Positions 21,001-24,000 of a stretch of 64,000 nt of DNA are shown one piece after another (positions within the stretch are counted from its first letter, which is position 1; each line of letters begins with the position of its first letter). Position numbers: made by a program. The DNA is from Escherichia coli (GTDB lineage Bacteria; Pseudomonadota; Gammaproteobacteria; Enterobacterales; Enterobacteriaceae), in assembly GCF_003018235.1 (NCBI RefSeq), contig NZ_CP027437.1, one strand, 5' to 3'.

Positions 21001-24000
21001 AAAGCAACGCGCCAGCGTATCCAGAATAATCATGCGTACAGGTTTACCCGTTTCCCGCTCCACCTGGCTGGCTGCGATAACCATTTCATCAACATCAAGC
21101 GGGGCCGCCGGAAAAATGGGACGGTTTACCAGATACAGATTTTTCACCTGCTCACCGTGCACAACCTCCCAGGCTTTTACACGACGTGGAACGCCGATAC
21201 CGCCTTCACCAACCACATAGAGAACCGCACCATGTGCAACCCTGCGGCCTCCCCAGTAGCGACCTGTGGAAACGTGACACGCCCACGATCCGGCAAGGAA
21301 TGATTTATAGGAACCGCTCGCCCCGTATATGCTGCATAGCGATACCGCCGGAATAATTCCCTTAACCACGTAATCAAGTTGCGTGTCGTATCCGGCAGAA
21401 CCAATGCTCATCGGTAGTTTGGTTTTCCGCTGGTGGCTTTTTTCTTCCTCCTGCGCTTTACCGCGCTCCCGTTCCAGATATTCGCGCCAGTTCTCCCGCT
21501 TCTGGCTGTGCATCCCATCTGGGTAATAATTCGCATCCCGTACACCTGCTGCCGCCAGCTTTTGCGCTATGGCATTAATGCTCGATGGCTTGATATGGCC
21601 TGCCCTGTACAGACGGACGCAATAGCGGCCCTCGTCGATGATTCTCAGGTCTGGCAGTTCAGCCAGTTGATCATCAGCCAGCACAACGGGAGGCACATTA
21701 TCGCCAGCAAGTCGCCCGTCCTGCTCCTGCCACTGCTTCGCGTGTGCCCAGGCATCACTACCCGCAAAAATAATGACTTCTGTCATTTTGTCGTAAGGCT
21801 GTTTTCTTAAGTTCGGTGCGCTCTTCATTTGCCTTTTCTCCCTCTGGCTATCTGGTTGCGTAACTCCGCTATGTGCTGTGCTATCGTTCCTGAATCATCA
21901 CAGCAATATTTCTTTTCCTTCAGAGGCGTAAAATCCTTCTCAAATTGCAACCGGAACATCACATTCTCAAATAAATATCCAGAACGTATAAAAGTAATAA
22001 ATGTGCTGTTAACTCTCGTCACTGTCACATAATTACCGTCACCATCCAGATAAATATCACCTTTAATAATTTCAGGGCGAGGAAGGCCGCTGGCAGTTGC
22101 GCCAGTATTTTTCTTTTTCATGGTATTTACCTTTCTGTTATTCGTCGTTCTGAATAAAACGTTGTTCTCTTATTTCAGAAAGTATCCTGTAAACATTCTT
22201 ATCACTTACCACTTGATGATAATCATCATCCTCAATAAAACACATCAGCGCCTTATTACGGATATATATTTCTCTGGAAAGAAACTGTATCGCCGCGACT
22301 GCCCTTTCTTCTGTAATTCCGTTCATTGACTCACGTTCAATAATAATATTAAGTGCGGCGGATGCGTCTTCCAGTTCAATAAGGTAAGCAGCGAGGTTAT
22401 TTTTTATTCCATTAGACATGGCTCACCCCCTGACAGATTTTTGCAGCGAATACAGCAACACAACCGGACGGGCAAAGGTTACGCGCTTCGCGTTCCGTCC
22501 AGGCGGTTACGTGGATGATTTGATGGTCTGACGCGCCAAAGGCAATAAAGCGCCAGGTGAATTTATTCAGGTTGTGCGAGTCCCGCCCTTGCGGGTGTGT
22601 GATATGATTTAACATAGCTACCTCGATACTATTGCTATCGTTGGTGGTTAGAAGCCTGTGGGTGTTAGCGGCACCTACGGGCTTCGCAGTTTCTGAACCT
22701 TGAACACTCAAGGTGTAAGACACAACATAAAACAACAGTGTCTTACACGTCAACCCTTTAAAATAGTTTTTTTTCGTGTATATTGTCTTACACCAAAAAC
22801 ATGAGGGGTTAGACATGGCAACAGGTCCAAAGAATGCAAAATCACAATCTGTAACTGCACGTATTGCCCATGAAATTATTGAAGGCATGGAAAACGTGAA
22901 AGAAGATGGCGAAAGTACAGGGCAGTTTATAAGCGCAGCCATGCGTGGCGAGATCAAACGCCGCCAACGGAAAAAAACCAAAGAATCAGATAAGGAATAA
23001 CTTATGCAGCAAGTACTATACTGGCTTGGCTCTTTGTTTTTATTTGCTTTCCTCCTGGGAAATTGCATCAGCAATGAACACGTCAGTAATGAGCGTGTAT
23101 GCAGGAGTGATGAAAAAAAGATTCCACGCCTCATATACAATGATTGATTAGCTCGTGCAGCACTAAAGCAACGCAAGGCCAAAGAGCAGGAATAGCCCAC
23201 CAGCAAGCCAGCGCACTGATCACATTGCCCACCAGCCGCAAATGTGGCATTGTTGGCTATGCTCATGCGTTGGGGATAACGTGTAGCTTGTGTCGAGGGG
23301 CCACCGTAGCGGGTGGCCTTTGTTTTGCCTGTTATCCGGCAATTGTGGCGCTTCGCCACACGGTTGATATAATTCCCCTGCACTGATCCATTTTTTTCGC
23401 AGCAGGTTAATTGTTCGCAAGGGCGCTCCGGCAACGGGGCGCTTTTTGTTATGTTCATCGCGTTACGCCTCACACCATTACGCAGCCGTTCCGCGCGCTT
23501 CTTCCTCGCGCTCTTTCAGCCAGGCCAGCACTTCATCTTCATACCAGCCAACACGACGCAGACCGATTTTGAAGCCTTTCGGGAATTTTCCGGCGTTGAT
23601 CATGTCCTGTAGCGAACTGTCCGCCTTGATGCGAAGAATATTTTTTACTTCCTGACGGGTGAGTATTTTTCTGATTACTTCCATCGTGTTTTACCTCATT
23701 AATCCGGCGTGTTCCGGTGATAAATACGGTAAAACAGGGAAGGGCGGGAAAAACAGTACCTACCGTTTTAAAACGGTACCCACTGTTTTTTATCTCGTTG
23801 ATTGTGCTTCTTTTTGCAAAAAATAGCGACCGCAAGGGGCCGCTATTGTGATTACCGTCTCCACTTCTTAGGTCGCCCACCGCATTTAAGGCTGGTGGGC
23901 CTCAGCACCTTGTCGATGCTTTCAGCCAGATTTTTCGATACGCCACGTGAGCGCAAAAAACTGACTACCTCGTGTTTTGTGGGGGCTGTTGATTTGTCTT

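Follow-up and report, generated by a model that had tools for sequence, protein, structure and literature searches.

The probable control region of an EcCICFT073-type island

How the replication genes of a phage-inducible chromosomal island (PICI) of Escherichia coli are held in check, and what releases them, is the question raised by a 199-bp gap between a rightward 61-aa gene and a leftward 67-aa Icd-like gene. In the published model for the prototype island EcCICFT073, AlpA is the sole regulator, the global repressor is called unclear and the differing induction strategy of Gram-positive and Gram-negative islands is called "a mystery" (Fillol-Salom et al., 2018, PMC6092414); the AlpA-only model has been restated in later cf-PICI work. 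We analyzed a stretch of 64 kb around the gap (the window). Our preferred reading, to which we assign a probability of about 0.6, is that the region is an exchangeable control ('immunity') cassette of an EcCICFT073-type PICI, in which the icd/replication operon is under two locks, a YlcI-type repressor with three operators and an antisense RNA of the SymR type. The cassette lies in a satellite group for which no repressor had previously been identified.

The island occupies approximately 15.2-25.65 kb of the window, beside tRNA-Pro(GGG) and yejM, and carries int, alpA, a helicase gene, PerC and a capsid fusion. A Gram-negative PICI is an island of ~10-15 kb at a specific att site, and the island has the size, att site, int, alpA and replication module of the EcCICFT073 type and is without lysis or tail genes. 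It is syntenic with EcCICFT073 and shares with this and other Gram-negative PICIs the order int, alpA, ylcI facing icd, small ORFs and DUF4222, continued in both by a primase or helicase gene, PerC and a capsid gene; the window differs in having an AAA_25 helicase in place of a primase and a ClpP-capsid fusion. At the gathering threshold, Rfam matched only tRNA-Pro and the L25 leader in the whole window. The genes around the gap are:

22815..23000, plus strand: ylcI-type gene, 61 aa, encoding a predicted ribbon-helix-helix (RHH) repressor of the YlcI/YnfO family
22412..22615, minus strand: Icd-like gene (icd), 67 aa, which heads the leftward operon and whose stop overlaps the 93-aa start (22419)
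20428..22419, minus strand: rest of the putatively controlled operon, comprising the 93-aa gene, a DUF4222 gene (98 aa) and an AAA_25/RepA-type helicase gene (466 aa)
23478..23684, minus strand: alpA (AlpA-family HTH), upstream of the icd operon and co-oriented with it; 100% identical in the island with a swapped cassette described below
23419..23446, plus strand: intrinsic terminator-like hairpin that would halt ylcI-side transcripts before alpA; a second is at 23296-23321

The Icd-like product matches NCBIfam NF033153 with 60.7 bits (cutoff 25). A preliminary description of this DNA had proposed a minus-strand operon from the Icd-like gene to the helicase, and the overlapping starts and stops, including that of the helicase start with the DUF4222 stop, bear this out.

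Three putative operators overlap two predicted divergent promoters

The 64-kb window contains three exact copies of GTGTAAGACA, at 22713-22722 (plus strand), 22739-22748 (minus strand) and 22784-22793 (minus strand), which lie within 81 bp and all fall inside the 199-bp gap. The sole further near match, with one mismatch, is at 2713, and no additional operator copies were found elsewhere in the island or window. The preliminary description had placed an inverted pair with a 14-bp spacing on a TTGACG/TATGTT minus-strand promoter and a third copy on the plus-strand −10 element. The layout GGTGTAAGACAC-N14-GTGTCTTACACG is indeed read at 22712-22749, and a consensus scan finds both promoters. The repeat unit quoted for the sites needs correction: it is 11 bp long, GTG-N5-CAC, and O3 has TTG where the other two have GTG.

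22713..22723: operator O1, GTGTAAGACAC, inverted relative to O2 and O3 and directly following the leftward −10 element; an equivalent site is present in 53 loci
22738..22748: operator O2, GTGTCTTACAC, filling the −35/−10 spacer of the leftward promoter
22783..22793: operator O3, TTGTCTTACAC, beginning at the last base of the ylcI −10 and spanning the predicted +1
22724..22753, minus strand: predicted promoter of the icd/replication operon, TTGACG (22753-22748), 18-nt spacer, TATGTT (22729-22724)
22757..22784, plus strand: predicted promoter of ylcI, TTTAAA (22757-22762), 16-nt spacer, TATATT (22779-22784)

Because the two promoter-like sites found in 1.2 kb match the chance rate (mean of 1.7 in shuffled sequences), it is conservation from locus to locus, and not the scan alone, that supports the promoter calls. 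We compared 53 related loci from ~20 genera; counted from the ATG of ylcI, their three sites are found at about −102, −76 and −31. The leftward −35 (GTCAA on the plus strand) is kept across loci and the −10 of the ylcI promoter (GTATACTG) strongly so. The placement of the operators is compatible with autoregulation and with a block on the leftward promoter. In the proposed first lock, which would act on transcription, YlcI dimers would bind the three 11-bp sites; with O1 and O2 occupied, neither icd nor the 93-aa gene, DUF4222 or the helicase gene would be transcribed, and the position of O3 at the ylcI start point suggests that YlcI would also regulate its own gene.

YlcI is very probably the protein that binds the repeats

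The 61-aa product is a member of the YlcI/YnfO family (NCBIfam NF041551; 65.3 bits against a cutoff of 30, residues 9-50), a name borne by 109 homologues in the sources. An AF2 monomer model (pLDDT of 88) has an extended stretch at residues 10-18 and helices at residues 19-28 and 35-60; this N-terminal β-strand followed by two helices can be superposed on known RHH proteins of the MetJ/Arc/CopG superfamily, and the predicted fold is consistent with the RHH assignment made in the preliminary description. Foldseek and sequence searches of the PDB with YlcI returned no match. Within its 61 residues the protein has neither a sensor domain nor an HTH. The literature on YlcI, YnfO, DUF3950, or SymR together with Icd-like yielded gene-list mentions only. 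In E. coli K-12, YlcI of prophage DLP12 is divergent from nohD and cos, and no GTG-N5-CAC triplet is found there. The 'putative repressor' of EcCIMP1 (ISME J 2025) is PerC and unrelated.

Across the 53 loci, conservation extends over the −35, the −10 and the GTG/CAC arms; the 5-bp cores are variable. The core changes together with YlcI residues 12 and 14, giving ~13 specificity classes. Sites 2 and 3 of the same locus match at 3.79 of 5 core positions, compared to 1.50 of 5 between classes (permutation p ≤ 1e-5). The residue most informative about operator class is residue 14 (mutual information of 2.52 bits of 3.19), followed by residue 12 (2.28 bits), which makes these two strand residues candidate specificity determinants. 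The maxima fall on alternate residues of the strand, and the sites have palindromic arms. Probably, the invariant GTG/CAC arms are read by invariant residues and the core by residues 12 and 14, and ~13 mutually orthogonal specificities would arise from the variable core. Since the operators and ylcI are just 30-100 bp apart, linkage alone gives some association; the argument for the binder rests on the concerted change of the three sites of a locus and on a natural cassette swap.

22650..23398: exchangeable immunity cassette, made up of variable cargo, ylcI, the operators and part of a hairpin; exchanged as a unit between the window and E. coli SCU-111

The window and the island of E. coli SCU-111 are 98.4-99.8% identical over ~10 kb outside this segment. 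Only ylcI and the operators change together, the core being TAAGA in the window and TGGCC in SCU-111, whereas AlpA and the helicase are 100% and Icd 99% identical. These three proteins are near-identical while the repeats differ and are therefore excluded as the binder. That the repeats serve another island protein, as helicase/initiator iterons or as sites for AlpA or the Icd-like protein, is consequently very improbable: repeats beside replication genes are often iterons, and PHROG 6196 and 1743, which match the Icd-like protein, are labelled 'transcriptional repressor', but the cassette swap rules out all three forms of the idea, replication genes differ among loci of one operator class, and the sites lie on promoter elements rather than in an origin-like array. 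From this comparative evidence we conclude that YlcI very probably is the factor that binds the three repeats.

We also considered YlcI as an antitoxin paired with a hydrophobic 47-aa ORF (23004-23147), or as a centromere-binding protein of the ParG/omega type, with repeats that serve its own operon. The ORF starts 4 nt past the ylcI stop and is preceded by a Shine-Dalgarno-like AGGA. Most loci, however, are without a downstream ORF and SCU-111 has an unrelated 75-aa ORF in its place; YlcI was accordingly rejected as an RHH antitoxin of a type II toxin-antitoxin system, which calls for a conserved adjacent toxin gene. Moreover, no ParA-type gene is present, and two of the three sites lie on the promoter of the opposite operon, such that either version has only a slight chance of being correct.

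Co-resident modules were of the same class in none of 12 pairs (~2 expected; P about 0.04-0.11, an underpowered comparison), and the finding that they are always of different classes is suggestive of heteroimmunity.

A predicted antisense RNA covers the icd start

The plus strand over the icd start has features of a short antisense transcript, which the preliminary description had overlooked:

22613..22695, plus strand: predicted SymR-like cis-antisense RNA, ~80 nt, complementary to the icd start codon, Shine-Dalgarno sequence and leader; its ends are inferred
22600..22608, plus strand: candidate extended −10 (TGaTATGAT; −10 letters TGATATGAT) of the antisense RNA promoter, within the first icd codons
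22651..22685, plus strand: terminator-like hairpin of the antisense RNA, with a 16-bp stem that includes G-U pairs on the plus strand only, followed by GCAGUUUCU

In 31 of 31 loci the plus-strand form of the hairpin is the more stable one, with a mean difference of −6.2 kcal/mol. In the alignment, 95.8% of cells are paired and 14 of 19 pairs have compensatory changes, a level reached by none of 500 shuffles; slid controls gave ~42% paired. A first stem-loop also co-varies, and in the commoner leader type its loop holds the anti-Shine-Dalgarno sequence. A covariance model built without the window finds 22613-22706 with 63.5 bits (E = 9e-14). The RNA of the window folds with −41.1 kcal/mol (z of −5.8), compared to −22.3 kcal/mol (z of −2.3) for its complement, and RNAalifold on the minus-strand alignment returned hairpin fragments only, such that the structure is clear solely on the plus strand. 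A TAnnnT −10 hexamer is kept at a conserved distance from the complement of the icd start codon.

SymR of E. coli, which acts on symE, is a close parallel (Kawano, Aravind and Storz, 2007, PMC1891008; Rfam RF01809). The SymR model matches two relatives over its full length and exactly on the predicted interval (L002, 35.9 bits; L045, 35.5 bits), with its 5' end aligned to the complement of the icd start codon. For the leader type of the window, no SymR match was obtained in 22350-23550 at E ≤ 10. The best score of 35.9 bits is below the gathering threshold of 61, and the predicted antisense RNA is thus akin to SymR in architecture and not a member by Rfam's criterion. As in SymR, the RNA would start at the start-codon complement from a promoter inside the target ORF, and nested 5' helices, a UUGUGxUUAG linker and the terminator loop GUGUUGGCGCAC are shared. 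Unlike in SymE/SymR, the target is Icd-like rather than the AbrB-fold SymE, and a predicted RHH repressor takes the place of LexA; LexA-box matches, sought as a sign of SOS control as at symE, occurred at chance level and none lies within the switch.

Could the hairpin be merely a structural or insulating element, acting in termination or RNA stability, with no regulatory antisense RNA being made? The U-tract in the window is imperfect, being displaced (GCAGUUUCU), so that termination at this hairpin is not certain; a simple terminator scan missed the hairpin, and the SymR match in relatives is below the Rfam threshold. Nevertheless, the G-U asymmetry assigns the structure to the plus strand in all 31 loci, yet it has no upstream plus-strand gene to terminate, the −10 at fixed distance would set the start at the icd start-codon complement as in SymR, and the full-length SymR model aligns from start to hairpin, with a first stem-loop that co-varies as well. 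We regard the purely structural explanation as quite unlikely. In our preferred reading the RNA would provide a second lock, at translation: transcribed from within the first icd codons, it would pair with the icd start codon and ribosome-binding site and would block translation of Icd and, via translational coupling, expression of the genes behind icd.

Possible release of the operon

SaPI Stl, an HTH protein of larger size than YlcI, loses its activity through helper proteins. The preliminary description had seen in YlcI the obvious candidate for a corresponding role; in this model YlcI is the sole master repressor, and induction requires that a helper-phage protein bind and inactivate it. 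YlcI very probably represses the leftward operon, its divergent gene between the integrase side and the replication operon recalls stl/str, and the inducer to which Gram-negative PICIs respond has yet to be named (PMC6092414). EcCICFT073, however, itself has a YlcI gene, three GTG-N5-CAC sites (of the TGGCC class, GTGTGGCCCAC, whereas the window is of the TAAGA class) and a predicted antisense RNA (NC_004431.1, about 1380759-1380854, minus strand of the record). Its ylcI and icd bear late-added locus tags in CFT073 and were probably left unannotated in 2018. In this island over-expression of AlpA alone, without a helper, induces excision and uncontrolled replication, and helpers raise alpA transcription (PMC6092414). 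Because the same cassette is present where AlpA alone induces, the claim that a helper must inactivate the repressor is unsupported. YlcI is also only 61 aa long without a sensor domain, no operator lies near alpA such that YlcI does not obviously control it, and with the predicted antisense RNA as a second lock the repressor would not be the sole switch. We consider the Stl-like role unlikely. A tblastn search of 50,697 phage genomes with YlcI gave no match at E ≤ 1e-3, leaving unsupported the idea that helper phages poison the repressor with close YlcI paralogues.

In our preferred two-lock reading, the operon would be released without the repressor having to be inactivated. AlpA, induced by the helper, would promote transcription that begins upstream of the cassette, and this read-through, running head-on against ylcI, would follow a stop-free frame into icd and bypass both locks. 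The stretch from alpA to icd contains no predicted terminator on the minus strand. Judged from the layout of the region, such read-through is more likely than inactivation of the repressor by a helper.

22412..23473, minus strand: stop-free frame of 353 codons in phase with icd, crossing the operators, ylcI (antisense) and the variable cargo

This frame, which begins 5 nt after the alpA stop, had been dismissed as an artefact that covers the real 67-aa Icd-like gene. That view holds in part: the 67-aa gene is real, but an open minus-strand frame is kept in 30 of 34 loci (shuffled expectation of 0.4%), where it abuts the preceding minus-strand ORF, and is in phase with icd in 23 of the 34; four loci are without a continuous frame. 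Its codons have no sign of selection at the protein level, as substitutions are flat over codon positions (77/87/86). An ordinary protein gene was rejected on this ground and because the cargo part is non-homologous between cassettes.

Tentatively, and as a possibility we rate as rather doubtful, the frame might be a functional part of the switch, through which the AlpA-driven transcript is translated from the alpA end into icd. Continuous translation would cross the antisense side of ylcI, the operators and the leader straight into icd, would yield an N-terminally extended Icd where the frame is in phase, and would shield the read-through RNA from Rho. Expression of icd would then be freed from the repressed promoter and from the antisense-masked ribosome site, and expression of ylcI would be collided with. 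Selection would act on the openness of the frame and not on the peptide sequence. If true, the frame would be unusual among genetic elements and would give a satellite a new means of overriding its own immunity.

Comparison with known immunity and copy-control systems

The combination predicted here has parallels in several mobile elements. Phage P22 immI has the RHH repressors Mnt and Arc, divergent promoters and the sar antisense RNA. As in immI, a small RHH repressor would act at back-to-back promoters with operators that overlap promoter elements, and one gene of the controlled operon has its ribosome site covered by a short cis-antisense RNA, predicted in the case of the window. Unlike immI, the window has one RHH gene rather than two, from a different protein family, three single 11-bp sites in place of the Mnt and Arc operators, and as target the icd/replication operon rather than the antirepressor gene ant.

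The immI region of phages P1 and P7 consists of c4 RNA, icd and ant, and P4 has the CI RNA immunity system; the C4 and CI RNAs are processed from the same transcript and act on the same strand. An Icd-type small ORF that comes first, RNA-blocked translation and dependent downstream expression are common to these systems and our model. In contrast to C4 and CI, the RNA of the window is a predicted true cis-antisense transcript. The C4/P4-CI RNA family (RF01695) had no match in the window at the gathering threshold or in 22350-23550 at E ≤ 10.

Copy control of pMV158/pLS1 combines the RHH repressor CopG with antisense RNA II on repB, and there as here replication genes would be under an RHH repressor and a translation-blocking antisense RNA. 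The differences are that CopG is co-transcribed with repB whereas ylcI is divergent, that pMV158 is a plasmid rather than an integrated satellite, and that the operator architecture is another one. With SaPI Stl/Str the window shares a divergent repressor gene between the integrase side and the replication operon; unlike Stl, YlcI is a 61-aa predicted RHH protein, and the closest characterized relative of the island is induced via AlpA.

Implications

These results describe a conserved repressor/operator cassette in the control region of Gram-negative PICIs, including the prototype EcCICFT073, and allow a function as operator-binding repressor to be proposed for the uncharacterized YlcI/YnfO family. 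The ~13 operator specificities, legible from two residues, would be usable as orthogonal repressor/operator pairs, and operator classes could predict cross-regulation between co-resident islands. Finally, the occurrence of a predicted SymR-type antisense RNA before Icd-like genes suggests a possible origin of the 5' region of chromosomal symE/symR.

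Genetic setting

The island occupies about 10.4 kb (15191-25650) at tRNA-Pro(GGG). It is flanked by the narP side and, on the right, by yejM, next to which the tRNA lies. It is syntenic over its whole length with the annotated island of E. coli SCU-111 (98-99.8% identity) and shares its gene order with EcCICFT073, the prototype Gram-negative PICI; it is an EcCICFT073-type PICI. The leftward operon runs icd, a 93-aa gene, a DUF4222 gene and an AAA_25/RepA-type helicase gene, in which the 93-aa start overlaps the icd stop and the helicase start overlaps the DUF4222 stop. The control region and its rightward neighbors are as follows.

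22412-22615, minus strand: icd, 67-aa Icd-like protein (NF033153, 60.7 bits)
22815-23000, plus strand: ylcI, 61-aa member of the YlcI/YnfO family (NF041551, 65.3 bits)
23478-23684, minus strand: alpA, rightward of ylcI
between alpA and the integrase: 77-aa ORF
24190-25449, minus strand: P4-type integrase

The sole structural gene encodes a 631-aa ClpP-protease/major-capsid fusion (16170-18065). The island also carries a PerC-family gene (18709-18984) and a second, XerC-like integrase (337 aa, 18981-19994); a satellite with a capsid only and two integrases is unusual. Secondary blastn matches against the SCU-111 island revealed a direct repeat of ~115 bp (~81% identity; 16027-16142 and 18577-18690) around the capsid-fusion gene and a 75-aa ORF. 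A 37-bp direct repeat (~89% identity; 20225-20261 and 20394-20429) in the stretch that separates the helicase gene from an 86-aa gene is a candidate replication-origin iteron. A 47-aa hydrophobic ORF (MQQVLYWLGSLFLFAFLLGNC..., 23004-23147, plus strand) starts 4 nt past the ylcI stop behind AGGA; it is not kept in other loci; the ylcI-alpA slot varies in cargo among islands (e.g. a 75-aa ORF in SCU-111, a 57-aa ORF in CFT073). The int-alpA RNA motif (RF02996) had no match in the window at the gathering threshold and scored above threshold in two related islands (L045, 1847-1913, minus strand; L009, 6893-6961, minus strand). A ribosomal protein L25 leader (RF03131) at 29442-29467 (minus strand), upstream of rplY, is ordinary chromosomal context.

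Operators and promoters

The sequence GTGTAAGACA has three exact copies in the 64-kb window, at 22713-22722 (plus strand), 22739-22748 (minus strand) and 22784-22793 (minus strand), all inside the 199-bp gap between ylcI and icd, and a search of the window returned no further copies. The complete repeat unit is an 11-mer, GTG-N5-CAC, and the sites are called O1, O2 and O3 from left to right. The inverted pair reads GGTGTAAGACAC-N14-GTGTCTTACACG, as the preliminary description had it. A consensus scan predicted two promoters, TTGACG-N18-TATGTT on the minus strand and TTTAAA-N16-TATATT on the plus strand; such a scan is not evidence by itself, since shuffled sequence gives 1.7 such sites. In related loci, the −35 (plus-strand GTCAA) and the −10 (GTATACTG) rank with the best-conserved columns. 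O2 occupies the spacer of the minus-strand promoter, O1 starts directly after its −10, and the first base of O3 is the last base of the plus-strand −10. No LexA box was found.

YlcI as the predicted operator-binding repressor

The comparison set comprised SCU-111 and 52 fetched loci from about 20 Enterobacterales genera. Essentially all have a YlcI gene opposite a small Icd-like gene, 185-206 nt apart, and in these loci the three sites lie at about −102, −76 and −31 relative to the ylcI ATG. The GTG/CAC arms and the promoter hexamers are constant. The 5-bp core varies among loci and is identical at the three sites of each locus; agreement between the site-2 and site-3 cores was 3.79/5 within a locus vs 1.50/5 between classes (permutation p<=1e-5, 34 distinct combinations). 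The core tracks the N-terminal strand of YlcI, with about 13 classes in total.

Representative classes: YlcI strand sequence and operator core
KSQSVTARI: TCTTA (TAAGA on the opposite strand, as at O1)
KSQMTTVRI: AAATA
KSQ(A/S)LK(A/S)RV: TGGCC
KSKKLEARV: TCAGC
KSQQLNARF: AATCG
KSLQVSVRL: AACAC

YlcI is predicted to have a ribbon-helix-helix (RHH) fold: its AlphaFold2 model (51-sequence alignment, pLDDT 88) has residues 10-18 extended, followed by helices at 19-28 and 35-60. Residue 14 (2.52 bits) and residue 12 (2.28 bits), alternate positions of the strand, had the highest mutual information with operator class, out of 3.19 bits; the flanking N7, S10 and R16 are invariant. Because the operators adjoin ylcI, linkage alone could give some association between core and protein. 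The association goes beyond linkage, since the three sites of one locus change together and since the window and SCU-111 differ by a block swap: the two islands are near-identical (AlpA and helicase 100%, Icd 99%) save for a replaced block at ~22650-23398 that holds the operators, ylcI and unrelated cargo. This swap ruled out AlpA, the Icd-like protein and the replication protein as the partner that matches the repeats in specificity, and likewise the ORF downstream of ylcI, which is not conserved. The comparison shows an RHH-family protein whose predicted specificity residues co-vary with three promoter-overlapping sites. At O1 and O2, YlcI would repress the leftward promoter; at O3 it would repress its own.

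A predicted antisense RNA over the icd start

The preliminary description is incomplete, as it overlooked a predicted second lock, a plus-strand RNA element antisense to the icd start. A conserved hairpin in the leader that separates O1 from icd is far more stable as the plus strand in 31/31 loci (mean difference −6.2 kcal/mol), because its G-U pairs become A-C mismatches on the icd-sense strand. In a plus-strand alignment of 34 sequences, 95.8% of cells pair, compared with 84.6% for shuffles (0/500 reaching the observed value) and ~42% for slid controls, and 14/19 pairs have compensatory changes. Rfam SymR gave full-length, sub-threshold matches in two related loci, L002 and L045 (35.9 bits, gathering score 61; E 0.0045 in 64 kb), which cover exactly the stretch that runs from the complement of the icd start codon to the hairpin and, like SymR, have nested 5' helices, a UUGUGxUUAG linker and a GUGUUGGCGCAC loop. 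A covariance model from which the window and its twin had been left out had a single match in the window, at 22613-22706 (plus strand; 63.5 bits, E ~9e-14), and a single match in EcCICFT073 (60.6 bits). The window RNA folds at −41.1 kcal/mol (z −5.8) vs −22.3 (z −2.3) for its complement. A TAnnnT hexamer keeps a constant spacing to the start-codon complement, −16 in 27/34 loci; in the leader type of the window it is at −10 and reads TGaTATGAT (22600-22608).

SymR, whose promoter lies within symE, represses translation of symE (PMC1891008). What the comparative data show is a predicted structured RNA element on the plus strand, antisense to the site where icd translation starts. By analogy with SymR, this RNA would block Icd translation, and the downstream genes would also go down via the overlapping stops and starts. 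No paper linking SymR with Icd-like genes was found in the searchable literature, whose coverage is incomplete. The DNA that specifies TQTRPKF, an N-terminal motif of Icd (plus-strand GCGAGTTTGGGTA; icd 5' coding region of type-A loci, e.g. ~3808-3850 of L006) is near-invariant across genera, synonymous sites included; it overlaps the predicted antisense-RNA promoter, which suggests a dual constraint.

A conserved stop-free frame

A 353-aa ORF across this region had been called an artefact covering the real 67-aa gene. The 67-aa gene is indeed real (family-model match, conserved start, annotation in relatives), but the long frame is not a chance ORF. One minus-strand frame is stop-free over the entire ylcI-antisense and intergenic span (~375 nt) in 30/34 loci, compared with 0.4% per locus expected by shuffling, and the other two frames have median open lengths of only 3 and 12 codons. 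The frame usually reaches 160-350 codons upstream of the icd ATG, starts at the end of the previous minus-strand ORF and is in phase with icd in 23/34 loci.

22412-23473, minus strand: frame in the window; it starts 5 nt past the stop of alpA and has an ATG (23458) preceded by GAGG
9313-10326 of L001: the frame in one of the 30 loci

Its peptide is not conserved, the cargo part being non-homologous between cassettes, and close pairs differ about equally at the three codon positions (77/87/86 substitutions, p=0.69), which indicates that the frame stays open without selection on its amino acids. The YlcI family is almost entirely without Tyr, whose codons would give antisense stops in that phase.

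Induction and release

The switch had been likened to SaPI Stl or P4 immunity, with the RHH protein as the candidate for the factor that a helper phage must inactivate. Excision and replication of EcCICFT073 are induced by AlpA over-expression alone, helpers work through activating alpA transcription, and a global repressor is, the authors state, unclear for Gram-negative PICIs (PMC6092414); the AlpA model is restated in the cf-PICI paper. EcCICFT073 has the same cassette (class QALKA, GTGTGGCCCAC operators), so helper inactivation of YlcI is not needed for induction, which argues against the Stl analogy. alpA lies upstream of the icd operon in the same orientation, the stop-free frame bridges both, and no minus-strand terminator was predicted between alpA and icd. 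The hypothesis that these features suggest is that transcription driven by AlpA enters from upstream and continues through the cassette along the minus strand. It would thereby evade both the repressed promoter and the masked ribosome site, and it would run into ylcI.

Distribution

The cassette is portable, with a tyrosine integrase no more than 4 kb away in 36/53 loci, a recognizable alpA in at least 17/53 and variable replication genes. Eight genomes carry two or three modules (L008/L019/L038, L021/L035/L041 and six other genome pairs), and 0/12 co-resident pairs share a class (~2 expected; P ~0.04-0.11), a suggestive if underpowered sign of heteroimmunity. Genomes of the E. coli collection have up to 6 places matching the switch region. 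No close YlcI homologue was found in 50,697 phage genomes. The family namesake, K-12 YlcI (6252-6446 of the K-12 locus L054, lambdoid prophage DLP12), is a distant relative, also RHH-like in appearance, and is divergent from nohD (terS) across cos; no GTG-N5-CAC triplet was found ahead of its gene. In CFT073 (L056 10474-11053 = NC_004431.1 1380473-1381052), ylcI, icd-like and neighboring small genes have late-added locus tags (C_RS30120, C_RS30125, C_RS30800), and the annotation on which the characterization of EcCICFT073 drew probably lacked them.

Relation to known control circuits

The logic of an RHH repressor at back-to-back promoters combined with an antisense RNA over a ribosome site is known from Mnt, Arc and sar of P22 immI and from CopG and RNA II of pMV158, and P1 immI has icd under RNA control. 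For the YlcI/YnfO role, the PICI cassette, the classes, the SymR-type RNA and the frame, no description was found in the searchable literature, whose coverage is incomplete. What appears to be new is the assignment of this repressor role to the YlcI/YnfO family, the presence of the cassette in the control region of Gram-negative PICIs, the prototype included, specificity classes legible from two residues, a SymR-type RNA ahead of Icd-like genes, and the conserved stop-free frame.
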